Positions 1 through 19,064 are shown, numbered from the stretch's first letter. The stretch: 36,175 bases of DNA from Minisyncoccota bacterium (GCA_035708305.1 DASSSU010000018.1:1-36175), one strand, 5' to 3'. Notes: generated by a model not told the origin, from the letters alone. Numbers and translations: made by a program.

Positions 1-116
1 CGAGACGCCTCCGCTCACCTCGTGCGCCGCATCCCGCGCCCATTTCCCTTTGCATCTTTTTTGCGGCTCCTCCCCCTGTCCCCCTCCACCGCAGAATGGA
101 AAAGGAAATGGGCGCG
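1..116. repeat. Left copy of a perfect 116-bp inverted repeat (partner at 8161..8276). Each copy can fold on itself: 14-bp stem 34..47/104..117 around a C-rich loop ctcctccccctgtccccctcc.
   Basis: I reverse-complemented 1..116 by hand and it matches 8161..8276 exactly. Flanking bases do not match, so the repeat is 116 bp. The internal stem cgcgcccatttcc/ggaaatgggcgcg was read directly. Confidence 0.9.
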
Positions 117-435
117 GTCTGCTCCGCCACTTCGTCCTGCAAAAGCTCCGAAAGGTCGCAAAGTATCCAATGCTCCCAATCTCCGCTTTCTCCGTCCTCG
201 TGGCGGCCCGAGGCGCTCGCGTAGCGAGAGTGCGTGGTAAATCGTACGTTCGCTCACACTTCGCCGCACCTCGCACTGGCCGCTCACATTCGCTCGCGAT
301 GCCTACTCGGTGCGACTTCGTGTTCACTCGGTGGCTTCTGCAATGTCCATTGTAGCTCGAAAAAGGCGGATTTGTATTTACACACAAATTACCACTCTAT
401 TGTGTCAAATGACAATAGGTGCTATATTACGTCAT

Positions 436-2607
436 ATGCAGGATAAATTTCTAAAACCATATAACTCTAGTGAAGTTGAGCCGTCTATTTACAAACTTTG
501 GGAAAACTCTGGTTATTTTAATCCTGCTAACTTGCCCGGTGAACAAAAAGAAACCTTTACTGTCGTATTACCGCCCCCAAACGTGACAGGAGTACTCCAC
601 TTAGGCCATGCCTACGAAGACTCATTACAAGATGCGGTTATTCGCTATCAGCGCATGCGTGGCAAACGAGCTTTATGGGTTCCTGGGACAGATTCTGCCG
701 CTATTGCTACGCAAGCTCGGGTTGAGAAAAACATTCAAAAAGACGAAAGTAAAAGCAGACATGATTTGGGGCGAGCAGAATTAGTACGCCGAGTGTCAGA
801 ATTCGCTAAAAATAGCGAAGACACTATTCTAAATCAAGTGCGTCGCATGGGCGCATCACTTGATTGGAGTCGTTACGCGTATACGCTTGATGAAAAACGT
901 AATTTTGCCGTGTCAACTGCTTTTAAGCGCATGTATGATGCGGGACTTATTTATCGTGGTAATCGTATTGTGAACTGGGACCCGAAAGGTCAGACCACTA
1001 TTTCTGATGATGAGATAATTCACGAAGAACGCACCACAAAACTCTACACATTTAAATACTCGAAAGAATTTCCAATAGCAATCTCGACAACTCGTCCAGA
1101 AACCAAGGTTGGTGATACTGCCGTTGCTGTGCATCCTGACGATGAAAGATATAAAAACTTTATTGGTAAAGAATTCGACGTTGTTTTCTGTGATGTGCCG
1201 CTCCACATAAAAATTGTGGGCGATGATTCAGTAGAAAAAGAATTCGGCACTGGTGCACTTGGTGTAACTCCAGCACACAGTCAAATTGACTGGGATATTG
1301 CAGATCGCCACAACCTTGAACGACCACAAGTGATAAACGAATATGCCAAAATGATCGCTCCTGGACGCTTGAAAGATAAAAAAGTCTTAGATGCGCGAGA
1401 AGATGTTGTTACATGGCTCAAAGAACAGGGGTTGCTTGAGCAGGAAGAAGAAATTACACAAAACGTATCGACTTCTGAACGGACTGGTGCAGTTATTGAA
1501 CCGCTCCCTAAATTGCAGTGGTGGGTTGATGTGAATAAGACTTTTACTATTCCGCACTCTGAAATACCAGGAATCGCAAGTGGATCACAAACGTCTCTGA
1601 AGGAAATCATGCGGAAGAGTGTAGAAAGTGGCGCTGTCGATATGCCGCAAGAGCGATTCAAAAAAACATACTTTCATTGGATTGATAATCTGAGAGACTG
1701 GTGTATTTCTCGACAAATTTGGTTTGGCCATCGTATCCCTGTTTGGTATAAAGGCGATGAAATTTACTGTGACACTATTGCTCCAGAAGGTTCCGAGTGG
1801 AAGCAGGAAGAGGACGTGCTTGATACTTGGTTTTCTTCTGCACTCTGGACATTCTCAACGCTTGGCTGGCCAGAAAAGACGAAGGACTTAGAGACTTTTC
1901 ATCCAACTTCGTTTATGTCACCAGCATATGAAATTCTGCCACTTTGGGTCTCTCGCATGATTTTGATGAGTGGTTTTCACCTAGGGCAAGTGCCGTTTAA
2001 AACAGTAATGATTCATGGACTGGTGCGAGACAAGCAAGGCTGCAAGTTTAGTAAGTCTCTTGGAAATGGTGTTGACCCGATAGAAGTTATTGATAAATAT
2101 GGAGCGGATGCATTGCGCATGGGCTTACTTGTAGGCACTGCTATCGGCAATGATATTAAATTCGATGAAAGTAAGATTAAGGGATATAAGCATTTTGCAA
2201 ACAAAGTTTGGAATATAACAAGATTTGTTTTAGAAAATACTGAAGGTGTTGATTTCTCGCAACCAGTAACTTCTACACATAAAGATCAGGAACTAATAAA
2301 GAATCTTGAAGCTCTCATTACCGAAATAACGGAAGATTTTGATAATTACCGACTCTATCTTGCCGCTGAAAAGATTTATCATTATGTATGGCATGAAGTT
2401 GCAGACAAGATTTTAGAAGAATCAAAACCAATTCTAAATGGCAATAATAGTGACGAGAAACTATCTCGCCAACATACACTTTATACACTTCTAACAACGT
2501 CACTCAAACTGTTACATCCATTTATGCCGTTTGTAACTGAAGAAATTTGGCAATCATTGCCAGAAAAGGAAACAGATATGCTAATTGTCACAGAATGGCC
2601 ATCATAA
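436..2607 (+). CDS. valS: Valyl-tRNA synthetase, class I aaRS. HIGH motif PPPNVTGVLHLGHA, KMSKS motif KFSKSLGN, anticodon-binding domain present. It ends at ...IVTEWPS, so the usual C-terminal coiled-coil domain is absent.
   Basis: The N-terminus MQDKFLKPY..IYKLWENSGYF aligns with canonical ValRS starts. The ATG at 436 is the first start consistent with that alignment; the track ORF from 310 runs back into GC-rich non-coding sequence. 723 aa. Confidence 0.9.
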   Translation: MQDKFLKPYNSSEVEPSIYKLWENSGYFNPANLPGEQKETFTVVLPPPNVTGVLHLGHAYEDSLQDAVIRYQRMRGKRALWVPGTDSAAIATQARVEKNIQKDESKSRHDLGRAELVRRVSEFAKNSEDTILNQVRRMGASLDWSRYAYTLDEKRNFAVSTAFKRMYDAGLIYRGNRIVNWDPKGQTTISDDEIIHEERTTKLYTFKYSKEFPIAISTTRPETKVGDTAVAVHPDDERYKNFIGKEFDVVFCDVPLHIKIVGDDSVEKEFGTGALGVTPAHSQIDWDIADRHNLERPQVINEYAKMIAPGRLKDKKVLDAREDVVTWLKEQGLLEQEEEITQNVSTSERTGAVIEPLPKLQWWVDVNKTFTIPHSEIPGIASGSQTSLKEIMRKSVESGAVDMPQERFKKTYFHWIDNLRDWCISRQIWFGHRIPVWYKGDEIYCDTIAPEGSEWKQEEDVLDTWFSSALWTFSTLGWPEKTKDLETFHPTSFMSPAYEILPLWVSRMILMSGFHLGQVPFKTVMIHGLVRDKQGCKFSKSLGNGVDPIEVIDKYGADALRMGLLVGTAIGNDIKFDESKIKGYKHFANKVWNITRFVLENTEGVDFSQPVTSTHKDQELIKNLEALITEITEDFDNYRLYLAAEKIYHYVWHEVADKILEESKPILNGNNSDEKLSRQHTLYTLLTTSLKLLHPFMPFVTEEIWQSLPEKETDMLIVTEWPS

Positions 2608-2613
2608 AGTTAT

Positions 2614-4368
2614 ATGAAAGTTAAAAAAGATGAGTATATTATTGGTGTTAACGTCGGACACGATTCTGGTATCGCATTGGTGCATAATGGTGTTTTTGTT
2701 GAGGTTATTTCTGAAGAAAGATTTACACGTCAAAAGGGGCATTTAGGTTTTCCTCACAAATCTTTGGATTACATAAAAGACAAATATCACATTAATGCAT
2801 TTGACAGGGTTGTGGTTATTTCTGGCAGTGGCCGCTATAAAACGATATTTTTTGATGAGCAAAAAAATAAAAGTCTACGACAACAGCGAAAAGGAGATGT
2901 TGAGGATGTCTTTATTAAGTCTATTCTTTTTAGATACAAAATTCTCAACATTTTAAATGCTTGGAAACATGTAAAGAAAATTTTTAAGCAGTATTTTAGG
3001 GCGCGTAAAATCAATCAATTCCTTCAGAAAAAGTTCCCAAATCAAGAAGTTTTGCACCTAGATCACCATCTTGCCCATGCGTGGGGCGCATTGGCATTTG
3101 CTGATTGTTCACAGGATCAGCTAATTGTCACGCTCGACGGTGAAGGAGATGGTTTGTCAGGTTCAATTTGTGAATATAAGAACAATCAACTAAAACGACA
3201 CTCTGTCGTTTTAGCTAAAAATTCTATAGGTACGCTTTATGGCCGCGTGACTGATTACCTTGGAATGAAAAGAAATGAACACGAGTACAAAATCATGGGT
3301 CTCGCGCCTTATGCAAAGGAGGATTCGAGCCGAATTGTGCTCGATAAATTCAGAGAGATTTTATGGTTAAGCAAAAACTCACTGAATTTTGAAAGTGCAT
3401 TTGATATGCAATTTGCACATTACTATATGGTTGCAAATAACTTCGGAAACTACCGCTTTGATGCTGTTGCATGGGCGATACAGGAATTTACTGAAACTAC
3501 CGTCTTAAGGTTTGTTCAGGCTGCACTCAAAAAGCATGGAGCAATAAATCTTTCTCTTGGCGGCGGGGTATTTATGAATATAAAATTAAATCAGCGGATA
3601 CTTTCCACTTGCGATCTTCACATTTTTAACCCGGCACCATCGTGTGGCGACGACTCACTATCAATTGGCGCAGCAAAGTTTGGTTATGACAATTTTTCAG
3701 GTAAAAAAACAGCACCGATCAAACATCTCTACCTAGGGACTGAATATACAGATGTTGAGATCAAGAAACATCTAGACAAGTTAGATGCTAACCAATACAA
3801 CATAAGCCATTTCAAAGGTGAACACGAAATTGAACAAGAAGTCGCTAAACTTCTAAGTAAGAATGAAATTGTTGCTCGATTCAAGGGACGTATGGAATGG
3901 GGTGCTCGTGCTTTAGGAAATAGATCAATCTTGGCAAACCCAACTACATTTGACAATGTTCGAACTATCAACGAAGCAATTAAAAATAGAGACTTTTGGA
4001 TGCCGTTTGCTCCTAGTATGTTAGCGGAACGTGCAGATGATTATCTAATTAATCCACAAAAGTTTTTATCGCCCTTTATGGCTGTTGGATTTGAGACAAA
4101 CAGTGAGAAAGCGAACGAATTTGTTGCTGCAATACATCCTTATGACAAAACTTGTAGACCTCAGGTGGTTTCTAAAGAGGTTAATCCTGACTACCATTCA
4201 CTTATTAAGTCTTTCGAGGAATTTACGGGAGCTGGGGTGATACTGAACACTAGTTTTAATCTTCATGGGCAGCCTATAGTTGAAAACCCTGCGGACGCAC
4301 TACAGACACTTGAACAAAGTGGTTTGCGGTATTTAGCAATTGGAAACTATTTGGTTTCTAAAAAATGA
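2614..4368 (+). CDS. NodU/CmcH/TobZ-family carbamoyltransferase
   Basis: 584 aa. Hallmark motifs GVNVGHDSGIALV near the N-terminus and LHLDHHLAHAWGA (metal-binding HxxH region), plus a C-terminal YrdC/Kae1-like portion. Starts 7 nt after the valS stop. Confidence 0.85.
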   Translation: MKVKKDEYIIGVNVGHDSGIALVHNGVFVEVISEERFTRQKGHLGFPHKSLDYIKDKYHINAFDRVVVISGSGRYKTIFFDEQKNKSLRQQRKGDVEDVFIKSILFRYKILNILNAWKHVKKIFKQYFRARKINQFLQKKFPNQEVLHLDHHLAHAWGALAFADCSQDQLIVTLDGEGDGLSGSICEYKNNQLKRHSVVLAKNSIGTLYGRVTDYLGMKRNEHEYKIMGLAPYAKEDSSRIVLDKFREILWLSKNSLNFESAFDMQFAHYYMVANNFGNYRFDAVAWAIQEFTETTVLRFVQAALKKHGAINLSLGGGVFMNIKLNQRILSTCDLHIFNPAPSCGDDSLSIGAAKFGYDNFSGKKTAPIKHLYLGTEYTDVEIKKHLDKLDANQYNISHFKGEHEIEQEVAKLLSKNEIVARFKGRMEWGARALGNRSILANPTTFDNVRTINEAIKNRDFWMPFAPSMLAERADDYLINPQKFLSPFMAVGFETNSEKANEFVAAIHPYDKTCRPQVVSKEVNPDYHSLIKSFEEFTGAGVILNTSFNLHGQPIVENPADALQTLEQSGLRYLAIGNYLVSKK

Positions 4369-4967
4369 TCCGGCCGCATTTTGACAATATCAATAATTGT
4401 ACGAGTCATACGGATGTAGTTCTGATCACCAGAGTTAATCAGATATTTTGTTAAGGTACTTTCATCGAACAGCTTTTTTAAAAGACGTTGTCTTTGTATA
4501 TAAAAGTCTATGAATTTTTCTTGATCTCCGTCGGAGCGTTCCATAACATATTGTACCCACTGCACATTTCTATATTTTAGTGCATCAAGCAGGCGTCTTT
4601 TTAATGCTTCTTCTGGTATATCTATAAAAAATAGTATTGCATTATGTCGTTTCAGACTACTTTCTATGTCTGCAAAATCCTTGATGGTGGAATTGGTTTT
4701 TATTGTATGAGTAAAATGTAATCTGTCAAAAACGTAAAGGTTTTTATTTTCAGCAAATACAGTTTTAAGTAGCTTTCTTAGAAATTCCTGATTATGTTTC
4801 AGATTCGTACTGTCGATGCATGGGATTACAGTCTCTTCTTCAGGTAAAAAAGTTCCTGACAAACCATGTTCTTTCGCGTAACGTCTTAGGTTGTCAGCGA
4901 TAGTGCTTTTACCACTTGTTGTCACTCCCTCAACTATGATAGTGCGATGGAAATTTTCTATACTCAT
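4347..4967 (-). CDS. P-loop NTPase, nucleoside/nucleotide-kinase-like. Walker A GVTTSGKST and DRxH motif FDRLHFTH, dNK/thymidylate-kinase-like fold.
   Basis: 206 aa. Last gene of the minus-strand operon. Start overlaps the upstream gene by 4 nt (4964..4967). The 3' end overlaps the convergent carbamoyltransferase by 22 nt. Confidence 0.6.
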   Translation of the reverse strand: MSIENFHRTIIVEGVTTSGKSTIADNLRRYAKEHGLSGTFLPEEETVIPCIDSTNLKHNQEFLRKLLKTVFAENKNLYVFDRLHFTHTIKTNSTIKDFADIESSLKRHNAILFFIDIPEEALKRRLLDALKYRNVQWVQYVMERSDGDQEKFIDFYIQRQRLLKKLFDESTLTKYLINSGDQNYIRMTRTIIDIVKMRPDHFLETK

Positions 4968-7240
4968 ACGTATTTTTGGATATATTTTATCTCATTAAGC
5001 ATATGCATTACTCCATGAACCAGAGGAGCAGGTAAAACCTTATCAAATTTTTTTCTCGAAGATGAATGTAGCTTATGGTTTTGAACTCCAATCGATAAAT
5101 GATTTTCTATGCGTGTATCTGGTATATCAAATTCATCATCCCCTACATGAACAGAAAGTATCTGTTTCCCGTATTGCTTTTTCAGTGTTTCTAAGCCAGT
5201 AAATTTACTACCATGTAAAGGATTAACAACTACTTTTAGTTCCCGTGTATTTGTGAAGTAATAGTATAAGTTAAATATCGACCAATCAATCTCTATCATA
5301 GAATCTTTGAGGATATTAAATTTGTACCCATCCCTGATATATAATGTGCCGTCACGTTCATGGAAGATGGAGATATTTTGCCTTACGAGTAACTCTTTAA
5401 GCTCTTGGAGATTCCCCAGATATTCTTTTGGAGCTAGGATTTTCTGTTTGTCCGATGCCGTGTCGTACAATACCGCACCATTTTCTGCCAATATGTAATC
5501 GAATTTCAAGGATGCATTAATCTCTTTTGCTTGACCAATGCTATTGTTTGTATTAAGAACAGTTACAAAATTGGGATTTATGTCTTTAACATAGTGCTGA
5601 ATTTGTGTAGCTTCCATAGCTAGCGGACTATGAATAGACTCTCTTAGGGTTCCATCTAAATCAAAAGAAAGAATGATAGGATTGTTATCCTTGATAGAAC
5701 AGCGTATCTTCTCATACTCTTTACCTAAGTAGTCATAAGCTCCTAGTTCACGAAATAAATCATGTATTTGTTCCGTCTTGGCATTGATACTAATGAAGAT
5801 ATTTAACAGGGCCTCTGTTTTGTTCTCTGTTTCAGCAGAGAATTTATAAGAAGTCATGTTGTCTAAAGCTACTTCAAAATCTAATATTTGGTTTAGTGAG
5901 TCAAGTAATATCTCTTTCGTGCGAGAACTTCCAGAACCGTTGATCTGAGTAACCGCATGTTTTACTTTCTTAATGTCTGTCCTTATCTCATTGGTTCTTT
6001 TTTGTGAAATATCTTTCAAGAATTTGGCAAAATACAAGCTATTGTTTTCCGATAATTTGATTAAGCAGCTGTATATTTGTGGGTCATTATCTCTTAATAA
6101 TGCTTCCACTATATGGGAAGGACTTGCAGCATCACCATTGTTTTTTCTTCGTCTAATATGTCTCGGTCCGGTTGCAATTTTTATTGCGTTTACCCCAAAT
6201 TTACTCCTCACTTGAGCAGAGATTACCAGGTCCTGAAGAGAAAAAGGCAGGACGAGTAGATTACTTATCGCTGTTGCGCGTATACTAAATGCACCCCCGT
6301 TTATTGTGAATGTGTGAGCAGAAGTTTGATTGTTTCTGCTCCTTGTATAAAGATTTGAAATCGGTTTTCGATCAACAAAACTGCGCAAAATTGTGTCTAC
6401 TTTTTCTTCAAGTTCTTTCCTGTTTGCAATAGTAGTATTTTCCTCGTTGTCAAAAATATTGAAAGGTGTAAAACGGGATTGTGACAATGAAGTAGAGAGC
6501 ATTTGTAGTATATCAACGAAATCACGGAACATTTTGTAAGGCGATCCTGTGTGATGAGTAACCCTGCCGGAAACAACCTGACTGTTTGGAAGCGAGAATA
6601 ACAACTCTCTCTCCTTGAAAAAATCAAAATCATTAACAATATATTTTCCGTCATTTTCGTCAAGTACTGAGTAATGGATGTCATCATCATGAAAAGTACA
6701 TATTGTTTGTTCAGGCTCAAAATTGTATTTTCCTATGGTGTATTGACTCATAAGGAGCGAGTAATTGAAAGCTCCAATTGTTCCACCAATATTCTTGAAT
6801 TCTTGTGAAATAAAGGAGATAAACTCTTCTTTGGGAAAAACTCTTGGGTTTAATTTCTCAATTTGTTCAAAAATTTTATTTCGGTCGTGTATATGATAGA
6901 TGTGAACGTTGATAAATTCGGGAGCAGTTGAGTTCAAACGATTGACTAGTGCATCAAATACAGTGGCGATTTCTCCCTCTTTCGTATCGTTGATAATGTT
7001 AATGATTATTTTATCTCGTTGGACGCTATATTTTTGAACATTGTCGAAGATAGAAATAATAAGACGTTCAACCAAATATGGATAGTTACAAGCGCGGATA
7101 TTAACAATTTCATTCTTTATTTCAAAAAGAGTCCCGTATCGTTTTTTTATAAAAATCTCCACCTGCCCTAAGTCAAAAGAATTTAAGTAGATATCTCCGA
7201 ATTCATCATAATTTTGTTTTCCCATAGTTACAGGTTTCAT
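4964..7240 (-). CDS. Large two-part protein. The ~500-aa N-terminal region has unassigned function (acidic DDD/DxD-containing, possibly a glycosyltransferase-like synthase). It is fused to a C-terminal HAD-IIB (Cof/MPGP/SPP-type) phosphatase domain.
   Basis: 758 aa. HAD motifs are visible: ILSFDLDGTL (motif I DxDGT), ILAENGAVLYD, and VHVGDDEFDIPD (motif IV-like). Both start and stop overlap neighbouring genes by 4 nt (ATGA). Confidence 0.6.
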   Translation of the reverse strand: MKPVTMGKQNYDEFGDIYLNSFDLGQVEIFIKKRYGTLFEIKNEIVNIRACNYPYLVERLIISIFDNVQKYSVQRDKIIINIINDTKEGEIATVFDALVNRLNSTAPEFINVHIYHIHDRNKIFEQIEKLNPRVFPKEEFISFISQEFKNIGGTIGAFNYSLLMSQYTIGKYNFEPEQTICTFHDDDIHYSVLDENDGKYIVNDFDFFKERELLFSLPNSQVVSGRVTHHTGSPYKMFRDFVDILQMLSTSLSQSRFTPFNIFDNEENTTIANRKELEEKVDTILRSFVDRKPISNLYTRSRNNQTSAHTFTINGGAFSIRATAISNLLVLPFSLQDLVISAQVRSKFGVNAIKIATGPRHIRRRKNNGDAASPSHIVEALLRDNDPQIYSCLIKLSENNSLYFAKFLKDISQKRTNEIRTDIKKVKHAVTQINGSGSSRTKEILLDSLNQILDFEVALDNMTSYKFSAETENKTEALLNIFISINAKTEQIHDLFRELGAYDYLGKEYEKIRCSIKDNNPIILSFDLDGTLRESIHSPLAMEATQIQHYVKDINPNFVTVLNTNNSIGQAKEINASLKFDYILAENGAVLYDTASDKQKILAPKEYLGNLQELKELLVRQNISIFHERDGTLYIRDGYKFNILKDSMIEIDWSIFNLYYYFTNTRELKVVVNPLHGSKFTGLETLKKQYGKQILSVHVGDDEFDIPDTRIENHLSIGVQNHKLHSSSRKKFDKVLPAPLVHGVMHMLNEIKYIQKYV

Positions 7241-7881
7241 TGGTTAAGCATGAAATGGTTCGGCTCAAGACAATGTCCGCCAATCGGTCCCTCAACATAT
7301 TTTAAGACGTATTTCGTGAACTCAAGATGTCCGAGTTTAGTATATCCGTCATTGTATGTTTTGTTTGCGAGTGTATAGACGATATCAAAATCAAGCTCGT
7401 GTTCATCGCAGTATTGGTGGATACGTTTGTTAAGCAAAATTGCTTCGCGGTAAATTTCAGTGTCCCATAATTTCATCGCTTCGGTATTTTCCGGCTTTTC
7501 AGTCGTGACAGTTTCAACGCCAAACGCAGAGAAGTGGGCTGCCACCTCTTCAGCACGCTCACCGCCAAAGAATTTAACAAATGTTTTAATGCCTTCGGCA
7601 AGATGTGGATGTTTACCACGCACTGGCGAATGCACCGCTTCCTTACCACACTTGCTGGTTGTACCCACAGGCACAGTGGAGTGAATAACGATCACACTCG
7701 CTCCCGTATCATGTTTGTATTTTTGTACTAATTCAACAAACTGGTCTGAGTACGGAAAGCAGATATGAATAATATCTGCTTTCCGTACTTCATCATTTTT
7801 ATCAATGCCATCGCATTGCAATACTTCCGCGAGGCCAGTTCCAATTTCACCCATTCCAATCACTAAATGTTTTTTCATCAT
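7237..7881 (-). CDS. NAD(P)-binding Rossmann oxidoreductase. The N-terminal fold resembles UDP-glucose/GDP-mannose dehydrogenase (VIGMGEIG, HSTVPVGTT); a GGHCLEPN cysteine motif is present.
   Basis: 214 aa, which is short for a full UDPGDH. Starts with MM, 4 nt after the XRE gene stop. Confidence 0.5.
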   Translation of the reverse strand: MMKKHLVIGMGEIGTGLAEVLQCDGIDKNDEVRKADIIHICFPYSDQFVELVQKYKHDTGASVIVIHSTVPVGTTSKCGKEAVHSPVRGKHPHLAEGIKTFVKFFGGERAEEVAAHFSAFGVETVTTEKPENTEAMKLWDTEIYREAILLNKRIHQYCDEHELDFDIVYTLANKTYNDGYTKLGHLEFTKYVLKYVEGPIGGHCLEPNHFMLNQ

Positions 7882-7885
7882 ATAA

Positions 7886-8092
7886 TCACTTCAATAACTC
7901 ATCACTTGTAACCCCCAACGCCCCTGCCAGCCGCTCAATCGTCGCAAGGGTAGGATTACCGTTTCCCGATTCAATATTACTTACTTGTGCACGATCAAGC
8001 CTTGTCGCACGGCAAATATCGCCTTGCGACATATTCTTTTGCTCACGAATACGTTTGATATTTTTACCGAGTCGTTTTGTTGGGGTATCCAC
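7886..8092 (-). CDS. XRE-family helix-turn-helix transcriptional regulator. Probable GTG start giving ~68 aa.
   Basis: The sequence KRLGKNIKRIREQKNMSQGDICRATRLDRAQVSNIESGNGNPTLATIERLAGALGVTSDELLK is a classic HTH_XRE helix pattern. The track ORF runs back to 8326 through the inverted repeat, which is implausible. An internal ATG at 8032 would cut off helix 1, so the GTG at 8092 is preferred. Confidence 0.6.
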   Translation of the reverse strand: MDTPTKRLGKNIKRIREQKNMSQGDICRATRLDRAQVSNIESGNGNPTLATIERLAGALGVTSDELLK

Positions 8093-8150
8093 GTCACATA
8101 TTTTACTCTTATTGTTAAGTATAACAATAGTGTGGTATATTTCAATAGCG
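8093..8150 (-). promoter_or_regulatory. Candidate sigma70-like promoter, TTGAAA-16-TATACT read on the minus strand. An overlapping palindromic operator ttgtta-N4-taacaa sits at 8111..8126. Likely autoregulation of the XRE operon.
   Basis: On the minus strand: ttgaaa tataccacactattgt tatact taacaataagag...GTG. The inverted-repeat half-sites TTGTTA/TAACAA were seen directly. Confidence 0.4.
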
Positions 8151-8160
8151 CCTTTACACC

Positions 8161-8276
8161 CGCGCCCATTTCCTTTTCCATTCTGCGGTGGAGGGGGACA
8201 GGGGGAGGAGCCGCAAAAAAGATGCAAAGGGAAATGGGCGCGGGATGCGGCGCACGAGGTGAGCGGAGGCGTCTCG
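8161..8276. repeat. Right copy of the perfect 116-bp inverted repeat. The terminal palindrome ggcgtctc-gtca-gagacgcc spans the repeat boundary at 8266..8285.
   Basis: Exact reverse complement of 1..116. Followed by ~300 bp of GC-rich non-coding sequence. Confidence 0.9.
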
Positions 8277-8573
8277 TCAGAGACGCCGGAGCGAGCCGAG
8301 GGCGCACCGAAGCGTAGGACCACCACGCGATCGGAGCGTACGAGTTAATCAGAAGCCACCACGCGCTTCCGCGCGTGCGAAGTGGGTTCGAGCAAAGGTT
8401 AGTATTTCTGCACAAAACGAGTGCGGCGAGTTTTTGTTCCCGAGAGGAAGCCGCTCTACGGCTTCCGTGCAGGAATCGAAGCCCGATTGAGCGGATTTTG
8501 TGAGTGAAACGAAACAAAATCTCCAATCGGGATACTGCTCCTGTAAGGAGAGATCCTTGCCGAGGGCACCAAC

Positions 8574-8601
8574 AAAAAACCACACAAGATTGTGGTTTTT
8601 T
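8574..8601. terminator. Bidirectional rho-independent terminator: A6-ccaca-caagat-tgtgg-T7
   Basis: Hairpin flanked by an A-run and a T-run, 21 nt downstream of the glutaredoxin stop. It also closes the GC-rich non-coding region. Confidence 0.6.
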
Positions 8602-8621
8602 ACTTACTTTTGGAATCAATT

Positions 8622-8867
8622 TTACGCCGCAATCCCGAGGATTTCCGCCATGGCGTTTCGTTCAAAGCCAACTACCGGGTCTTTGCCGGGAACCACGATC
8701 ACCGGGACTGCCATTTGACCGGTCAGCTCAAGCATTTCCGTCCGTTTTTCCACATCCGTGCTTACGTCGTAATCTGTATATGCCACACCCTTTTCCGTAA
8801 AAAACTCTTTCGCCTGTTTGCAGTAGGTGCAGGTCGGAGTACTGTAAATAATAACTTTTTCGTCCAT
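8622..8867 (-). CDS. Glutaredoxin/NrdH-like thiol-disulfide oxidoreductase (CxxC = CTYC)
   Basis: 81 aa. MDEKVIIYSTPTCTYCKQAKEFF is a typical glutaredoxin N-terminus. Confidence 0.85.
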   Translation of the reverse strand: MDEKVIIYSTPTCTYCKQAKEFFTEKGVAYTDYDVSTDVEKRTEMLELTGQMAVPVIVVPGKDPVVGFERNAMAEILGIAA

Positions 8868-8922
8868 ATTTTTTAAAAATTATATCCTCATTGTATCACA
8901 GGGAAGCACAAAAAGTGAAAAA

Positions 8923-9315
8923 TTATGGCATTTGGAGTTTTTCCTGGATTTTCTCGACAATTTCGCTCAGTTCGGTTGCGCTTTTTACATAATAGTCCGC
9001 GCCGAGGGATTTCACTTCTTTGATTTTGTCCGGGTCGGAAACATTGGAGAGAACAATAACCTCAAGTGAAGCAAGATTCTCGTCCGATTTAATTTCACGC
9101 AAAATAGAAATGCCGTCCAGCTCGGGAAGAATCACATCGAGCAATGCCAAATCGTGGGTCGCCCGCTTGGCAACTTCCAGTCCTTCTTTTCCGTTTCGGC
9201 AGATAGTGACCTCGTATCCTTCTTGTCGCAGACGTTCATCAAGTACCCGGGCGAGAAAACTATCATCTTCAACGAGAAGAATAGAGCCGGAATTTTTCAC
9301 GCTTTCTTCATCCAT
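8923..9315 (-). CDS. Stand-alone response regulator, receiver (CheY-like) domain only
   Basis: 130 aa. ILLVEDD...LALLDVILPELDG...K receiver motifs. No output domain and no histidine kinase in the window. Confidence 0.85.
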   Translation of the reverse strand: MDEESVKNSGSILLVEDDSFLARVLDERLRQEGYEVTICRNGKEGLEVAKRATHDLALLDVILPELDGISILREIKSDENLASLEVIVLSNVSDPDKIKEVKSLGADYYVKSATELSEIVEKIQEKLQMP

Positions 9316-9342
9316 TTCGTCTTTAATAGTAGCAAATTCTCT

Positions 9343-11877
9343 TTATTTTACAAGGCGCCAACTTCCTCCTTCGATCAGCGGAAGTGCTTTTTTATACTTC
9401 ATGGATTTAGTCTCCTTGCCATCCGTGATCTCCACCACATCATTTCGCCCGATCTTCTCTTCCGTCGCCGGTGAGTGACTTTTCTTGGTTGAAGCATCGG
9501 CTTTTCCTTCTTCGCCGCCCGCCTCGCGGAAACTTTTTTGCATTTCTTTCGCCTCCTGCTCTGCTTTGACAAACATGCCGCCGCCAATATTGCCAATGAG
9601 TCGGATGGTCTCGCTGCGGAAAGTGTCTTCCATGTCATGGAACATCTGCAAGCCTTCTTTCTTGTACTCCACGAGCGGATCACGCTGTCCGTACGCACGC
9701 AAGCCCACGGAAGAGCGCAAATACTCCATGGCTTCGAGATGGTCCATCCAGAGCATGTCCGTCAGCTGGAGGAAGAGCCGACGCACGAGTCCGAGAAAAT
9801 CTTCCTCACCAAGCTCGGCTTTTTTCTTCTCCACGAGTTTCGCGGCATCATCATCCCCCGCGATCAATTCATCCAAGAATTCACGGATAAAATCCATGTC
9901 ACCGAGCAAGATCTTGCGCCGCCGTTCGTAGATCTTGTTGCGCTGCTGGGCAAGCACGTTGTCGTACTGAAGCACGTTGCGGCGAGAATCGAAATGAAAC
10001 CCTTCGATCTTTGTCTGTGCGGTTTCGAGTGACCGTGAAATAATTTTGTTTTCGATCGGCTGATCTTCCGGAATTCCAAAGGTGCCCATCATCCGCTTGA
10101 TCGCATCGGCAGCAAAGACCCGCATGAGGGAATCCTCCAGTGAAACAAAAAATTGCGTTTCACCCGGATCACCCTGACGTCCTGAACGTCCGCGAAGCTG
10201 GTTGTCGATCCGCCGCGCTTCATGCCGCTCCGTTCCAAGCACAAAAAGCCCGCCAAGCTGCTTGATCTCCTCGTATGTTTCCTCTGTCCCGGGATTGCCG
10301 CCAAGTTTGATGTCCACGCCGCGCCCTGCGAGGTTGGTCGCGATCACCACGCTTCCTTTCTTCCCTGCCTGTGCAATGATCTCTCCTTCGTTTTCGTGGT
10401 TCTTGGCATTCAAAACCTGATGCGGAACGCCTTCTTTCTGCAAAAATGCCGAGAGAAGTTCGTTTTTCTCGATCGAAACCGTACCGATCAAAATCGGCTG
10501 ATTTTTTTCGTGCACTTCTTTTACCCGCGCCGCAATAGCTTTGAATTTTCCAATCTCTGTTTGGTAGATCAGATCGTTTTTGTCGATGCGCTGTACTGGC
10601 ACGTTCGTCGGCACTTCCGTCACATCAAGTCCATAGACTTTGTAAAATTCCTCACGCGACGTGCTTGCGGTTCCCGTCATGCCCGCAAGTTTTTTGTACA
10701 TGCGAAAATAGTTTTGAAACGTAATCGATGCAACCGTACGCGACTCCTTTTGAATCGTCACACCCTCTTTCGCCTCCACCGCCTGATGAAGCCCTTCCGA
10801 CCACCGGCGTCCCGGCTGAAGCCGCCCGGTAAATTCGTCTACGATGATGATCTCTCCATCGCGGATCACGTATTCTTTGTCTCGTTCAAAAAGCGCTTTC
10901 GCCCGCACAGCAGTTTCCAGGTGATGCACATCTTTGATCCCACCTTCGGTGTAAATATTTTCTACACCAAGGAGTTTCTCTGCCTTGGTAATGCCCTCAT
11001 CCGTAAGCTGAATAGCGCGAAGTTTTTCATCTACTTCATAATCCTCATCCGGCTTCAAACGCTCGGCAATTCGTGCGAACTTCACGTACAGATCTTCAGA
11101 CTCTCCGGAAATGGCAGAGATGATAAGCGGTGTTCTCGCTTCGTCGATCAAAATAGAGTCGATCTCGTCCACAATCGCGAAATGGTAATCACGCTGCACC
11201 AGTGCTTCCGACGCGTATGCGAGATTGTCGCGCAGATAGTCGAAGCCGAACTCGTTGTTCGTACCATACGTGATATCTGCCGCGTAGGCTTCCCGCCGCG
11301 TGCATGGACGCAAAAATTCATACTCTACTTTAAAAGACCCGAGTTCATCGCGCACCTCGTCGTCCTCCTTGCTTTTATGCTCGGCGTCGTAGAGATATGA
11401 GGACTCATGGTTGATCACGCCGACCGAAAGCCCGAGAAAAGCATAGATCTGTCCCATCCACACCGCATCACGCCGGGAGAGGTAATCATTCACCGTCACC
11501 ACATGCACTCCTTTTCCTTCGAGTGCATTTAAGTACACAGGAAGCGTTGCCACAAGCGTCTTTCCTTCTCCAGTACGCATCTCAGAAATATTTCCCTGAT
11601 GAAGCGCGATGCCTCCCATCAGCTGCACATCGTAATGTCGCTGGCCAAGCACACGCTTTGCTGTTTCGCGTACCACCGCAAACGCCTCCGGAAGAATGTC
11701 GTCCAGTGTTTCATTTTTGTTCAGCCGCGTTTGAAACTCTTTCGTCTTTTCGCGCAATTCCTCGTCCGAGAGTTTTTGTATCTCAGATTCAAGGGCGTTA
11801 ACTTTTTCCACCAGAGGACGCATCGTCTTTAGCGTCTTCTGTGTCCCTCCTCCAAACAGGTTTTTGAAAAGCTCCAT
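9343..11877 (-). CDS. secA: Preprotein translocase ATPase SecA
   Basis: 844 aa. MELFKNLFGG...TGEGKTLVATLPVYLNAL (Walker A in NBD1), DEAD-like helicase motifs, long helical scaffold domain. Confidence 0.95.
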   Translation of the reverse strand: MELFKNLFGGGTQKTLKTMRPLVEKVNALESEIQKLSDEELREKTKEFQTRLNKNETLDDILPEAFAVVRETAKRVLGQRHYDVQLMGGIALHQGNISEMRTGEGKTLVATLPVYLNALEGKGVHVVTVNDYLSRRDAVWMGQIYAFLGLSVGVINHESSYLYDAEHKSKEDDEVRDELGSFKVEYEFLRPCTRREAYAADITYGTNNEFGFDYLRDNLAYASEALVQRDYHFAIVDEIDSILIDEARTPLIISAISGESEDLYVKFARIAERLKPDEDYEVDEKLRAIQLTDEGITKAEKLLGVENIYTEGGIKDVHHLETAVRAKALFERDKEYVIRDGEIIIVDEFTGRLQPGRRWSEGLHQAVEAKEGVTIQKESRTVASITFQNYFRMYKKLAGMTGTASTSREEFYKVYGLDVTEVPTNVPVQRIDKNDLIYQTEIGKFKAIAARVKEVHEKNQPILIGTVSIEKNELLSAFLQKEGVPHQVLNAKNHENEGEIIAQAGKKGSVVIATNLAGRGVDIKLGGNPGTEETYEEIKQLGGLFVLGTERHEARRIDNQLRGRSGRQGDPGETQFFVSLEDSLMRVFAADAIKRMMGTFGIPEDQPIENKIISRSLETAQTKIEGFHFDSRRNVLQYDNVLAQQRNKIYERRRKILLGDMDFIREFLDELIAGDDDAAKLVEKKKAELGEEDFLGLVRRLFLQLTDMLWMDHLEAMEYLRSSVGLRAYGQRDPLVEYKKEGLQMFHDMEDTFRSETIRLIGNIGGGMFVKAEQEAKEMQKSFREAGGEEGKADASTKKSHSPATEEKIGRNDVVEITDGKETKSMKYKKALPLIEGGSWRLVK

Positions 11878-11933
11878 AATATTACGTCAAAAGATAAACA
11901 ATAGATGCAATTATACCATGGAAAGAACCAAAG

Positions 11934-11960
11934 AAAAACCCCTCAAAATAAGGGGTTTTT
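11934..11960. terminator. Bidirectional rho-independent terminator: A5-cccct-caaaata-agggg-T5
   Basis: Lies between the K-rich small gene (stop 11980) and the secA start (11877). Confidence 0.6.
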
Positions 11961-11979
11961 CGAAGAGAACTCGGAAAAA

Positions 11980-12126
11980 TTATTTCTTCTTTCGAGTGGT
12001 CTTTTTTGCAGCTTTCTTTTTTGCTGGAGCTTTTTTCTTTGCAACCTTTTTCTTGGCCACTTTCTTTTTTGCTACTTTTTTCTTTGCAACCTTTTTCTTT
12101 GAAGCAGCTTTCTTTTTTGCTGGCAT
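11980..12126 (-). CDS. Lysine/alanine-rich small basic protein (histone H1-like / KKAA-repeat DNA-binding protein): MPAKKKAASKKKVAKKKVAKKKVAKKKVAKKKAPAKKKAAKKTTRKKK
   Basis: I reverse-complemented and translated this by hand: ATG at 12126..12124, TAA at 11982..11980. At 48 aa it is below the ORF-track cutoff. The track's 83-aa ORF on the same strand in another frame is Cys-rich and less credible. A terminator follows immediately. Confidence 0.55.
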   Translation of the reverse strand: MPAKKKAASKKKVAKKKVAKKKVAKKKVAKKKAPAKKKAAKKTTRKKK

Positions 12127-12427
12127 AAAACAAAAATTATTTATTCCCTCAAAAAATTTTTTAAAAAATAAAAAAACATTTTGAAGGGGGCTTATTAAAA
12201 ATCAGCGAAAGCTTCGACCTCGGTTCAAATCTTTTTTGCGATCAAAATGAAACGCAAAACTTTTTCTAAACCTTCGCAACGATCTGCATTAATTATCATT
12301 CAATTAAAAATTAATACAATATTTTTTTACAAAAAAATTGTGGATAACTTTTTATTTTTTAAAAAAAATTTTTGTAAAAGTTTTTTATTTTTTATTCCGC
12401 AAGATACTTTTAAATTTTTTTTAAGCA

Positions 12428-12484
12428 AGAAAAAATCTCCGGCATTGCTTTTCGAAGTTTGTGGGCTTCACGAGAAAAGCAATG
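12428..12484 (-). terminator. Probable murB terminator: 11-bp stem cattgcttttc/gaaaagcaatg enclosing the 20-nt core GAAGTTTGTGGGCTTCACGA, followed on the minus strand by a T-run
   Basis: Stem 12443..12453/12474..12484, loop 12454..12473. The A-run at 12428..12436 on plus gives a T-run on the minus strand. Confidence 0.5.
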
Positions 12485-12516
12485 ACAGAGATTTTTTCTT
12501 TTTTCTCTCACAATAT

Positions 12517-12606
12517 CGAGAACGAGAAGCTTCCTTCTTTCAAGACACCGCTCCAAGGGCGCTTGCCCGGTCTTAGTGTCTTGAAAGAAGGAAGCTTCTC
12601 GTTCGA
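12517..12606. repeat. Long near-perfect hairpin. A 28-bp perfect stem (12521..12548 / 12576..12603), plus 4 bp beyond a 2-nt bulge, around a 27-nt loop that holds a small gggc/gccc hairpin.
   Basis: I reverse-complemented the arms directly: aacgagaagcttccttctttcaagacac pairs with gtgtcttgaaagaaggaagcttctcgtt. The right arm ends 20 nt from the murB stop at 12626. Confidence 0.7.
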
Positions 12607-12625
12607 ATATTTCCAAGATGGGTTT

Positions 12626-13648
12626 TCAAAAAAACCGCACTTCGTATTCAAGTTCAACAGCCGTCTTGTCTTTCACACACGCACGCACTTCTTCCGAAAA
12701 ATTTCGTACATCCGCCGCACTTCCCTCGCCATAGTTTACGATTGCCAGTGGCTGTTTCGGGTAAGTCCCCACATCGCCTTTTCGGTACCCACGCATGCCG
12801 CACACATGATCAATCAGCCACGCCGCTGGGACTTTGTAGCCTTGCTCCACCGTGTAGAACGGCATTTCAGCATACGTTTTCTGCAGTTGTGCAAAAGCGC
12901 TTTCAGAAAGAATAGGGTTTTTGAAAAAAGAGCCAAGTGTCCCCAAAACTGCCGGATCAGGGAGCTTGTTTTTTCGGATCGTGATCACGGCCTGGCGCAC
13001 ATCCGCAAGTGTCGGATGATCGTTCTTTTCTGCTTCAAAATACGCACGGACATCTTTGTAGTTCGTATTGATCGGAGCGTTCTTTTGTAGACGAAACAAC
13101 ACCCGCGTGACGACGAAATGCTTTCCTTCTTCTGTTTTGAAAAAACTGTTGCGATAAGAGAAGTTGCATGCTTCGTTTGAAAACTTTTTTACGACAAGCG
13201 TTCGAGTGTCCAGCGCTTCCACTTCATGAATCGTTTCTTTCACTTCCGTTCCGTACGCGCCGATATTTTGCACCGGACTCGCGCCAACCGTACCAGGAAT
13301 CCAAGAAAGGTTTTCAATACCACCAAGATTCCTTCTCACCGTTTCCGCCACAAACCCATCCCAGTTTTCTCCCGCACCGACACTTACGACAGCATTCCCC
13401 TTTTCGTCTTCATCTCCAAACTCCATCCCGAGCATTTGATTGCGGATGATCAACCCTGGAAAGCCATCATCAGAAAAATACATGTTCGACCCTCCGCCGA
13501 TGGTGAGCAGCGGAAGCTTTTTTTCTTTTGCAAAACCCACCGCTTCTTTCAGATCCGCGAGATTTTCCACGGTACAAAAAAACCTCGCAGGTCCGCCGAC
13601 ACGCAAGGTTCCAAAATTTTTGAGCAGAACGTTTTCCTCCATTTTCAT
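12626..13648 (-). CDS. murB: UDP-N-acetylenolpyruvoylglucosamine reductase
   Basis: 340 aa. FAD-binding PCMH domain (TIGGGSN), MurB C-terminal domain (GxGSFFKNP...GYRxGD). Confidence 0.9.
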   Translation of the reverse strand: MKMEENVLLKNFGTLRVGGPARFFCTVENLADLKEAVGFAKEKKLPLLTIGGGSNMYFSDDGFPGLIIRNQMLGMEFGDEDEKGNAVVSVGAGENWDGFVAETVRRNLGGIENLSWIPGTVGASPVQNIGAYGTEVKETIHEVEALDTRTLVVKKFSNEACNFSYRNSFFKTEEGKHFVVTRVLFRLQKNAPINTNYKDVRAYFEAEKNDHPTLADVRQAVITIRKNKLPDPAVLGTLGSFFKNPILSESAFAQLQKTYAEMPFYTVEQGYKVPAAWLIDHVCGMRGYRKGDVGTYPKQPLAIVNYGEGSAADVRNFSEEVRACVKDKTAVELEYEVRFF

Positions 13649-13889
13649 CGCGGTCTTTTCAAATTACGATGAAATCACGGCCACTTGCGGCCAACGGAGG
13701 CGAGCTCCAAGCAAACGTCTATGTGAGTGCTGCCGTTAGCCACAGCCAGCCATGATTATCTATTGTATTATACCAGTTATGAGAGCGAAATGAAAAACTT
13801 TTTTCTCTTCACGGAGTGGATAAAATCGCAGTAGATTTCTTATGAATTCTTAAGAAATATAGAGACTTTACTGGTTTTTGCCGAAAAAG

Positions 13890-13918
13890 TTGCAAAATAT
13901 TTTTTCTGTGCTATACTG
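13890..13918 (+). promoter_or_regulatory. Candidate sigma70 promoter TTGCAA-17-TATACT
   Basis: -35 at 13890..13895, -10 at 13913..13918, exact 17-nt spacer. There is no annotated plus-strand gene downstream before the terminator at 13962..13988. Confidence 0.35.
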
Positions 13919-13924
13919 CCTTTG

Positions 13925-13988
13925 TGAGTGTTGGAGTTTCCAACAACGAACGTCTACATCAAATTCCCGTTCTGCGGGAATTTTTTGT
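13925..13988 (+). ncRNA. Candidate ~65-nt small RNA bounded by the promoter above and a canonical terminator. The terminator has an 8-bp stem aattcccg/cgggaatt (13962..13969/13975..13982), loop ttctg, then TTTTTTG. An internal hairpin gttgga-gtt-tccaac is also present.
   Basis: Called purely from the promoter and terminator geometry in the murB upstream intergenic region. There is no homology support. Confidence 0.25.
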
Positions 13989-14059
13989 GCCTGATTTCTT
14001 TTTTTATATTCTTTTGCACAAATTTCATTCACTTTACTTTCTCGGAGAATTTCCAGGGG

Positions 14060-14091
14060 AAAAAATATCGCGCAACCTCTCGTTGCGCGAT
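14060..14091 (-). terminator. Rho-independent terminator for the 14144..14770 gene: 10-bp stem atcgcgcaac/gttgcgcgat, loop ctctc, T-run on the minus strand
   Basis: About 53 nt downstream of the stop at 14144. The A6 at 14060..14065 on plus gives the T-run on minus. Confidence 0.5.
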
Positions 14092-14143
14092 TGAAGTTTT
14101 GTGCCATTTATAGCACGCTATTCATCTTTTTTGAATATATCCT

Positions 14144-14770
14144 TTACTTTGTCTCCTTCCAACCAACGACAAAATACCCTTTGACTTCTTTATTGAGAGG
14201 CCAGATAAAGTACGGTTTCCCCTCCCAAACCTCAAGAAATATCTCATCTGTCCTCTGTACCAAGAATACTTTTCTTCTATGGACCCGTATTTCCCAACAA
14301 TTCAAGCTCCCCTCTTGTCCGGGTGTTCCGACATTTAATTTTTGCTCTTTCTGCGGTAAATCCAGTATCGGCGTCCTCCATAAGATAATTAAACTCAGCC
14401 AATTCTGTTTGGCATGGATGACACGAACTTCTTGAATCAGCACTTTTTTGGAAAATTCGGTTTTGTCTTGTCCCACCTCATCCGGGATTTGATAGTACAA
14501 TTCCGTTTCAAAGCATGCATTCCGGCCGTACCATCGTTCCACAAAAATTTTCCGAAAATGCCGAGAAAAGACAAGCAACAAAAGAAATCGGAAGGGAGCA
14601 ATGCACAGGATCGTCATTAAAAGAATCACGGGCAGGAAAAGGAACTGCGCCAAGGAAGAGAGGTGGGTATAACTCCCCACAAGGTCGCTTGCTGGAATTT
14701 GCCCCGTAAACACTTGTCCGATTTTCTTAGCAAATAAAACAGAAGTGAGCTTTTTTTGTGAAGAATTCAT
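14144..14770 (-). CDS. Hypothetical membrane protein: N-terminal transmembrane hairpin plus a soluble domain, possibly bacterial-PH/DUF304-like
   Basis: The start is set at MNSSQKK, the ATG at 14770, which is preceded by GGAGGAAAAAC. The track ORF extends further, to 14935. Hydrophobic segment LAQFLFLPVILLMTILCIAPFRFLLLLVF. Confidence 0.5.
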   Translation of the reverse strand: MNSSQKKLTSVLFAKKIGQVFTGQIPASDLVGSYTHLSSLAQFLFLPVILLMTILCIAPFRFLLLLVFSRHFRKIFVERWYGRNACFETELYYQIPDEVGQDKTEFSKKVLIQEVRVIHAKQNWLSLIILWRTPILDLPQKEQKLNVGTPGQEGSLNCWEIRVHRRKVFLVQRTDEIFLEVWEGKPYFIWPLNKEVKGYFVVGWKETK

Positions 14771-14928
14771 GTTTTTCCTCCGTTTGGGCACATCGTGCTT
14801 GGTAAAGAGCCTGTTTCTGTTTGTACCATAAACAGCGCGTTTTATCCAGATTTCTCCCCTCCTCAGCTTTGCCCACAAAAACAAAGGAGGAACTGAAAAC
14901 TGAAATCTCACCGCCTCTGCCAAAATGC

Positions 14929-14957
14929 TTGACAAGTAACGATTTTTATGTATAAAT
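14929..14957 (+). promoter_or_regulatory. Candidate sigma70 promoter TTGACA-16-TATAAAT upstream of the SPFH gene
   Basis: The -10 overlaps the ATG at 14948. If this promoter is used, the true start is more likely the in-frame TTG at 15005, which is preceded by GGAG at 14990..14993. Confidence 0.4.
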
Positions 14958-17398: not shown

Positions 17399-17791
17399 TT
17401 ACGCACCCGGGATAGTTGGCGTCAATTGCTGAACGTTTGTAGGAGCAGTTACAGTTGTTGCACCGCCGTTGTTTACGCCAAACGTGTCTTGTAAAATCTT
17501 TACCAATCCCCAGACAGACACAATCACAAAAAGAGCAATAATACCCCAAATCATGATTGAAATACCTTCCGATCGTGCACCGGCATCTCCTGACTTCAGG
17601 ATAAACATTGCCAATCCATAGAAGAAGAAAAGAACAGCAAGTGTGATGAGGATCGGGATAATAATGTTGATAAGGTTGCCGATAATTCCAAGGATACCTG
17701 CGAGCCCACCACTACCACCTGACGTTTGTGCAAAAGCAAATCCCGGAGTAACCGCCAAAAGCGCTAACGCTCCATACAGAATTTTTTTCAT
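17399..17791 (-). CDS. Small two-transmembrane secreted/membrane protein, paralog 2 (signal peptide MKKILYGALALLAVTPGFAFA)
   Basis: 130 aa. Conserved core ILITLAVLFFFYGLAMFILKSGDAGARSEGISIMIWGIIALFVIVSVWGLVKILQDTF. Confidence 0.65.
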   Translation of the reverse strand: MKKILYGALALLAVTPGFAFAQTSGGSGGLAGILGIIGNLINIIIPILITLAVLFFFYGLAMFILKSGDAGARSEGISIMIWGIIALFVIVSVWGLVKILQDTFGVNNGGATTVTAPTNVQQLTPTIPGA

Positions 17792-17967
17792 ACGTAATTC
17801 GATAAAAAATAATAATTTGCGACCTAATATTAATTTATCCGAAACGCGCGCAAATTGGGAGCGTTTCTTTATTCAACATCATAAAATGTTCATCCAAATT
17901 CCGCAACTCAAACTGTGGATAATCTCTTTCTAAGAGGAAGCAGGCGACAAAACAACTCTCAGTTACC

Positions 17968-18243: not shown

Positions 18244-18263
18244 AGAAGTAAAAAATAGAAAAA

Positions 18264-18635: not shown

Positions 18636-18661
18636 GGTTTTAATTACTCTGGTTACTTCCT

Positions 18662-19027: not shown

Positions 19028-19064
19028 AAAAAATATTGTAACCGCTTCCGTAAGAAAAAACAAT

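Follow-up and report, generated by a model that had tools for sequence, protein, structure and literature searches.

Inverted hairpin arms around a compositionally distinct valS block, a probable horizontally acquired cassette, in a Minisyncoccota genome

Introduction

Why should the gene for an essential enzyme of translation lie between two long inverted repeats? The question is raised by the first 8,276 nt of a 36,175-nt contig from a metagenome-assembled genome (MAG) of a Minisyncoccota bacterium (GCA_035708305.1, DASSSU010000018.1), which we analysed over its whole length and call the window: there, the gene for valine--tRNA ligase (valS) opens a block of six genes that closes with a small XRE-family regulator. 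Aminoacyl-tRNA synthetase (aaRS) genes are often horizontally transferred, and to our knowledge their replacement has so far mostly been inferred from trees; Patescibacteria, as far as we know, have tiny genomes and few recognised mobile elements. We propose, with moderate confidence, that the block is a horizontally acquired valS cassette between inverted hairpin arms, that the two arms are homogenised, and that the whole behaves as an XRE-regulated unit.

Results

Comparison of the window with itself yields one strong repeat and no other: positions 1-117 and 8160-8276 are 100% complementary over 117 nt, with 8042 nt intervening. A preliminary description of this DNA had reported an exact inverted repeat of 116 nt, one nucleotide short of its visible length; a perfect pair of 117-mers cannot arise by chance in 36 kb. 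That description had also seen the identity stop sharply at both ends. The inner ends are indeed abrupt, with positions 118-127 and the reverse complement of 8150-8159 matching at only about 2 of 10 positions, but the left outer end is simply the end of the contig, where no boundary is observed. Because the window is an entire NCBI MAG contig (protein HET8574863.1) and coordinate 1 is its end, the left arm, visible as 1-117, is cut there and its outer boundary is out of view. Two arm copies are visible in the window. Both are non-coding, as shown by 1-nt insertions and deletions relative to an orthologous block from a separate sample (L010, below), and no open reading frame (ORF) spans either one. 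Towards the enclosed block, each arm ends in a long hairpin, H, whose stem of about 19 bp encloses a second, GCGG/CCGC stem and a loop rich in G; the fully complementary part of the right arm (8160-8276) contains H, and the left arm carries its inverted copy, in which 24-55 pairs with 96-127. Single-sequence folds of the arm regions give z-scores of -3 to -7. Rfam covariance models matched the arms nowhere at the gathering threshold, the single sub-threshold match, to a microRNA hairpin, being judged a chance one. A T-box leader for valS was considered and rejected, since Rfam at gathering and E-value thresholds returned only this kind of chance microRNA-hairpin match.

An arm that begins exactly at a contig end raises the suspicion of an assembly artefact, in which the assembler would have added the first 117 nt as a chimera or fold-back, with a length that could conceivably reflect the mechanics of the assembly graph. 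We find this hardly credible in light of independent assemblies. Look-up by exact protein sequence led to k=31 Logan contigs of run SRR25158513 that are 100% identical to the window. One of them (L001) covers 88-7323, and its start, 88 or 117-29, lies within the left arm, exactly 30 nt (k-1) from where the arm meets unique DNA, so that an independent assembly contains this junction at 117/118. A second (L002) covers 8388-11253, its start being 8417-29. In a separate run, SRR32573209, the Logan contig L010 (8096 nt) carries a block 90% identical in nucleotide sequence to the window's, and its two ends are exact reverse complements over exactly 30 nt, which is the signature of a unitig running between two repeat copies; the orthologous block in this second sample thus shows the same terminal inverted overlap. 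In three further lineages the corresponding positions carry inverted repeats, and there they lie well within long contigs. Since the unitig boundary falls at precisely k-1 within the arm, it is the repeat, which the assembler was unable to pass, that ended the contig at its first base; the preliminary description had suspected a multi-copy element of breaking the assembly there. The length of 117 is not explicable from assembler k-mer sizes; it equals 258-141, possibly by coincidence. Logan unitigs of SRR25158513 also break at 7323 and 11253, where no repeat is seen in the window and where low coverage or strain variants could be responsible.

The same architecture recurs in related genomes, for which all comparison loci were fetched through valS and covered about 10 kb on either side. 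About ten independent assemblies of one type (L003-type) hold the same six genes in the same order and, in all of them, in one orientation, and the flanks of their block form a 100-nt inverted repeat at 86% identity (about 180 nt at 75%) with copies 8050 nt apart. In L011, a perfect repeat, of which 40 nt are visible, brackets a block that likewise ends with an XRE gene and carries other cargo (12197-15222): a tRNA overlapping the end of valS, a 294-aa GluRS-like protein, an archaeal-type AdoMet synthase (MetK) and a sulfotransferase, which together look like a small-molecule pathway beside an aaRS gene. The SPAdes contig of L011 ends in poly-G-rich junk right after the right arm (15541-15597), probably a sequencing or assembly artefact at the repeat. 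On sequence comparison, the bracketed architecture is common to three related lineages, one of them with different cargo. The arms themselves change quickly: the two arms of one genome share 99-100% identity, arms of different genomes reach 83% at most, and the window and L010 differ at about 8 of the 30 visible arm positions even as the adjacent unique DNA is 93-94% identical. Since the arms are identical within the window genome and within L010 yet divergent between the two, they evolve fast and in concert. Identity within genomes combined with divergence between them suggests copy correction by recombination, a process that also inverts the intervening region.

How far do the arms extend beyond what is visible? 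We propose that each probably measures about 258 nt (8160-8417), perfect throughout or perhaps interrupted near 8277. An outer edge near 8417 is indicated by the start of L002, by the homology of the right arm to the right arm of the L003-type relatives, which stops at 8417, and by the distant Paceibacteria locus L048, both arms of whose perfect 216-nt repeat are 82% identical to window 8326-8414, the match stopping at 8413-8414, the outer edge of the L048 arms. The segment 8277-8417 is thus the probable outer part of the right arm (an L' element), homologous to arms of L003-type, L011, L048 and L026; its partner would lie beyond the contig start. On the left side of L011 the order is tRNA-Val, L element, H' hairpin, spacer, valS, which is the order expected if the missing part of the window's left arm is an L element. 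A small palindrome, GGCGTCTC-GTCA-GAGACGCC (8268-8287), spans 8276/8277, where the visible identity stops. Searches for the arms beyond these relatives were negative: the hairpin-core pattern CGCGCCCATTTCC-N40-70-GGAAATGGGCGCG had no match in the collections genome_contigs, metagenome_contigs and viral_contigs, which do not include the source MAG, a conserved 20-mer of the L core had none in viral contigs, and BLASTN of the XRE gene with the arm region found nothing among phages or plasmids.

A profile search with the arms did reach further among the valS loci. It found both arms of repeats in two distant Paceibacteria, L048 and L026 (valS 61-63% identical), and a lone copy in L035. The L048 arms (670-885 and 3081-3296; 216 nt, 100% identical) enclose three small ORFs plus an XRE gene adjoining the right arm, a cargo of 43% GC in a host of 59% GC; the bases outside them, …aaccta and atagta…, show no obvious target-site duplication. 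The L026 arms (4638-4882 and 7658-7904; 247 nt, 99%) enclose an FkbM methyltransferase and a 561-aa protein. Both cargoes are unrelated to the valS cassette, and both cassettes also lie near the tRNA-Val/valS region, in loci that were all fetched through valS. In all five arm lineages a long hairpin stands at the inner arm end, with differing stem sequences. From these comparisons, arm-bounded cassettes appear to form a small undescribed family, found with the same or other cargo in five further lineages; a literature search on Patescibacteria, inverted repeats and serine recombinases together turned up no paper that describes them. Inverted repeats of 41-52 nt (82-88%) that flank valS in distant loci were rejected as arms, being tRNA-Val against tRNA-Phe.

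In both L048 (3293-5000) and L026 (2974-4646), the arm-bounded cassette is abutted by the gene for a large serine recombinase with Resolvase, Recombinase and Zn_ribbon_recom domains. The two enzymes, of 539 and 534 aa, are 62% identical to each other; their genes lie next to tRNA genes, each enclosed by a separate GC-rich inverted repeat, of 152 nt at 93% in one case and 136 nt at 100% in the other, and a degraded copy is found next to tRNA-Val in L045 (2252-4613). This recombinase, which is not on the window contig, is the sole candidate enzyme for movement. It also bears on a quite different explanation of the locus, in line with the invertible cassette that the preliminary description had allowed for, namely that the 8-kb block is a programmed invertible segment. 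A site-specific enzyme, such as a serine recombinase whose gene lies a little beyond the contig end, would flip it at a candidate site within the arms such as the palindrome at 8268-8287, and coexisting orientations would have broken the assembly. Long perfect inverted repeats flank the block, the palindrome sits exactly where visible identity stops, homologous arms abut a recombinase gene in two genomes, and an inversion polymorphism would give the same unitig breaks at the arms, which are nonetheless expected with or without inversion. We consider programmed inversion unlikely, however: there is no recombinase on the 36-kb contig or in the visible flanks of L011 and the L003-type loci, all L003-type assemblies share a single orientation, and both terminal genes have their own promoter and operator inside the block, so that inversion switches nothing obvious. 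Known invertase crossover sites, moreover, are tens of base pairs long, not about 250. As a by-product of recombination between the arms, inversion is plausible, but not obviously functional.

That the enclosed DNA is AT-richer than the sequence to its right, as the preliminary description had judged by eye, is borne out by measurement. GC content is 38.8% between the arms (118-8159) and 36.9% in the stretch from 2614 to 7881, compared with 47.1% from 8277 to the end of the window. GC content at third codon positions (GC3) averages 0.342 in the six enclosed genes (range 0.29-0.40) and 0.490 in 21 genes outside (mostly 0.45-0.59; Mann-Whitney p=0.0006), reaching 0.56-0.59 in the genes for SecA, GyrA and RNase R. 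The shift falls at the arms, and valS itself is included in it. Across hosts, the GC3 of the block stays at 0.30-0.40 with flanks at about 0.29, about 0.50 and about 0.50: it is unchanged both in the L003-type host (flanks 0.45-0.54) and in the L011 host (about 0.29). By contrast, the valS of distant relatives resembles its flanks in GC3, and so does the native valS of L174, a locus without the cassette.

The relatives of valS tell a similar story in best-hit patterns, which are not trees, from a database of 5.8 billion proteins. ValS has at least eight database clusters at 89-94% identity (94/91/91/91/90/89%); its relatives include L010 at 94%, Ca. Lloydbacteria RIFOXYC12_FULL_46_25 and other assemblies at 91%, and L011 at 89%. 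The best matches of proteins encoded on the same contig are far lower, at 79/77/75% for SecA and 79/76/72% for GyrA, and the named GyrA neighbours are Yonathbacteria, not Lloydbacteria. The valS of L174 is 81% identical, with host-like GC3 and no arms. The coincidence of the compositional break with the arms, the discordance between valS and SecA or GyrA best hits, and a GC3 independent of the host all support the view, raised in the preliminary description, that terminal inverted repeats bound a cassette acquired by horizontal transfer. Most simply, a lineage of low GC content, similar to that of L011, would have been the source of everything between the arms, a direction of transfer that we infer.

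The block's genomic position qualifies this picture. In Paceibacteria the usual order is SPase, HisRS, YbeY, FtsA, FtsZ, TrxB, tRNA genes including tRNA-Val, valS(+), a variable stretch of 2-8 kb, tRNA-Phe and tRNA-Arg, and grx(-), with RR and SecA beyond grx in some. The right flank of the window (grx, RR, secA) and the left flank of L011 are ancestral, and the block stands in the ancestral orientation, valS(+) and then grx(-). The block's valS is the only one visible in the window, and it occupies the ancestral position, so the notion that valS is ordinary cargo is not borne out. ARAGORN found no tRNA gene in the window, and the contig holds no integrase either; since distant relatives have tRNA-Val upstream of valS and tRNA-Phe and tRNA-Arg between the valS region and grx, these tRNA genes have been displaced or lost here. 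L173, the closest relative by SecA (77%), has no arm-like DNA beside grx. The L003-type flanks, RecG upstream and PRTase-PilM downstream, are shared with L174, where they surround the native valS; for this reason we rejected the argument that these flanks are evidence of the block having moved as a unit.

These observations bear on the possibility that the arms are a passive inverted duplication. Under this explanation the arms would be duplicated intergenic DNA with a structural or regulatory role, such as hairpins, terminators or possibly a small RNA, at the ends of a valS-XRE regulon, kept alike by gene conversion and with no role in transfer, and the foreign valS region would have arrived by ordinary homologous recombination at a conserved valS/tRNA locus. 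In its favour, the hosts all carry the cassette where their own valS would be, and in most Paceibacteria the region lies between tRNA-Val and tRNA-Phe, which might provide homology. Stable hairpins abound in the arm regions, and no mobility gene was found. We nevertheless regard it as doubtful: homologous arms bracket unrelated and compositionally foreign cargo in distant hosts, as in L048; the change of composition in the window falls at the arms rather than at a tRNA; and no Rfam family matches the arms.

Several points also weigh directly against our proposal of an acquired, arm-bounded cassette. The left flank lies beyond the contig end, placing the full arm, any target-site duplication and any adjoining recombinase out of view, as are arm copies elsewhere in genomes that were sampled only around valS. 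No transposase, integrase or invertase was found in the block or elsewhere on the contig, by Pfam and NCBIfam scans of the six enclosed ORFs and a contig-wide look. RNAalifold on the H hairpins of the five lineages produced a poor alignment with no usable consensus. TETRA discriminates weakly, giving 0.27-0.38 for the block against other chunks and 0.37-0.61 among other chunks, and the best-hit discordance is possibly inflated by fragmentary assemblies that do not contain full-length SecA and GyrA of the true close relatives. Finally, every host examined carries the cassette where the native valS belongs, and L174 shares the L003-type flanks; replacement by homologous recombination fits this as well as arm-mediated mobility does. 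The constant position is what replacement at a hotspot would produce, and by itself does not demonstrate that the arms mediate movement.

The two ends of the block share a further feature that suggests common control. An operator-like palindrome, TATTGTGTCAAATGACAATA (398-417), lies 18 nt before the likely true start of valS, and a matching one, TATTGTTAAGTATAACAATA (8110-8129), lies 17 nt before the start of the XRE gene. The motif TATTGT-N8-ACAATA has exactly two matches in the 36 kb, compared with 0.03 expected, and TTGT-N8-ACAA pairs are found at the same two places in L010, L003 and L011 and are absent from L174. Because the pair stands before both valS and the XRE gene and is kept in relatives, we infer that the XRE protein probably binds both palindromes, controlling its own gene and valS and thereby both ends of the block. 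For each of these two genes, operator and start codon lie inside the block.

Between the arms, a GC-rich (55%) spacer on the plus strand (118-397) precedes valS; it is about 93% conserved with L010 and, given the 1-nt insertions and deletions that separate the two, non-coding. The valS gene (436-2607, plus strand; GC3 0.33) has a solid family match and encodes an ordinary Patescibacteria ValRS. In ORF lists it begins at 310, in the Logan gene call at 409, and alignment with relatives favours the ATG at 436; the ATG at 409 falls within the operator-like palindrome. The preliminary gene list holds for valS, for a NodU/CmcH-type carbamoyltransferase (2614-4368, plus strand) and for the XRE-family helix-turn-helix regulator (7886-8092, minus strand; 68 aa, GTG start), all of which have solid family matches. 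Its other three labels, kinase-like, HAD-fusion and dehydrogenase-like, correspond only to sub-threshold matches: a 206-aa P-loop protein resembling nucleotide kinases (4347-4967), a 758-aa protein without an assigned function whose residues 524-661 weakly match Cof-type HAD proteins (4964-7240), and a 214-aa Rossmann-like protein with a weak match to nucleotide-sugar dehydrogenases (7237-7881), all on the minus strand. Sequence searches of the PDB with the 758-aa and 214-aa proteins gave no match, and exact-sequence look-up gave no record for the latter.

Discussion

We propose the following model for the locus. Positions 1-117 and 8160-8276 would be the inner parts of two inverted GC-rich arms, each composed of an outer L segment and an inner long hairpin H, which bracket valS, four genes that may modify small molecules or sugars, and the XRE regulator. 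The whole cassette, essential valS included, would have been acquired from a Paceibacteria lineage of lower GC content, and would now stand at the ancestral valS position by grx-RR-secA. Recombination or gene conversion between the arms could keep the pair identical within the genome, and the same exchange would also flip the block, probably without effect on expression. The XRE protein, acting on matching palindromes, would make the block a single regulated unit.

Known systems share parts of this architecture. Like composite transposons of the Tn5/Tn10 type, the locus has identical inverted copies around several kilobases of cargo that is foreign in composition and variable between hosts; unlike them, its arms are about 250 nt of non-coding hairpin DNA and not transposase-encoding insertion sequences, no transposase was found, and one gene of the cargo is an essential housekeeping gene that stands at its ancestral locus. 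Invertible segments offer a second parallel. The C segment of phage P1 has 0.6-kb inverted repeats and is inverted by Cin, and the G segment of Mu by Gin; these segments and the shufflons resemble the block in placing several kilobases between perfect inverted repeats, and relatives of the arms lie beside a serine recombinase in two genomes. In contrast to these systems, no invertase was found by the block and its arms split no gene or promoter, and whereas Hin and Gin are small enzymes, L048 and L026 encode large, integrase-type serine recombinases. In the identity of copies within a genome and their divergence between genomes, the arms recall the large inverted repeats of plastids, which, however, measure 10-25 kb and not about 0.25 kb; the arms are also gene-free, and the unit they bracket is apparently exchanged horizontally.

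The hairpins invite comparison with the attC sites of integrons, which are imperfect hairpins of about 60-140 nt, the ends of IS200/IS605 elements and REP elements, in that the inner arm end is a long imperfect hairpin whose structure is kept as its sequence changes, a loose fit that draws on single-sequence folds. Unlike those elements, the hairpins here lie within much longer arms, and no gene for a tyrosine recombinase, IntI, HUH/Y1 transposase or RAYT was found on the contig. Integron cassettes differ further in carrying one site each, in the same orientation, around a promoterless cassette, whereas the arms are inverted around a multi-gene block with its own promoters. As in xenologous replacement of aaRS genes, valS is foreign in composition, has relatives far closer than those of the rest of the contig, and lies at the native position; what sets this case apart is that valS travels within a delimited block, together with the block's XRE regulator and variable accessory genes, between long borders of inverted repeats.

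If our proposal is true, aaRS replacement would have a concrete vehicle in a bordered unit that moves an essential translation gene between lineages differing greatly in GC content. The arm family would also provide a signature by which variable cassettes could be searched for at the tRNA-Val/valS hotspot, namely an L segment with a long hairpin, perfectly alike within genomes and fast to diverge between them. The association with a large serine recombinase in two genomes makes this enzyme a testable candidate mechanism. As a speculation to which we attach rather low confidence, Patescibacteria may harbour an undescribed class of cassettes with inverted, GC-rich, hairpin-ended borders of about 250 nt, recognised in trans by a large serine recombinase residing in a repeat-bounded module of its own. 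Such cassettes could carry an essential aaRS gene controlled by an XRE repressor of their own; a host that had acquired one and then lost its native valS would depend on the element. Bolder still, the variable cargo, whether carbamoyltransferase, kinase and HAD proteins or GluRS-like protein, AdoMet synthase and sulfotransferase, might make an aminoacyl-adenylate mimic, with the co-regulated valS as a resistant target. On a practical level, arm repeats systematically break short-read assemblies at valS, affecting MAG completeness and the inference of gene order in this group.

Additional features of the contig

Just outside the cassette, on the host side, lies a hairpin-rich non-coding stretch (8418-8575) that ends in the grx terminator and is conserved in distant Paceibacteria (69-71% in loci L115, L168, L022, L018 and L011), with no Rfam match. 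Its minus strand contains a sequence resembling a tRNA T-arm, GGGCTTCGATTCC, and the stretch may be an unrecognised RNA gene or a tRNA remnant.

Farther to the right, the window contains a Lys/Ala-rich, histone H1-like ORF with repeats of 15-nt period (11882-12133; GC 0.34), and between this gene and murB a cluster of palindromes (12427-12604) that includes a perfect 29-nt pair (12520-12548 and 12576-12604). A 32-nt inverted repeat at 94% joins 12448-12479 with 20997-21028, 8.5 kb apart. Three tandem paralogues of a type IV secretion system (T4SS) pilin (PF18895/TrbC) occupy 17399-19108, with about 60% nucleotide similarity between neighbours.

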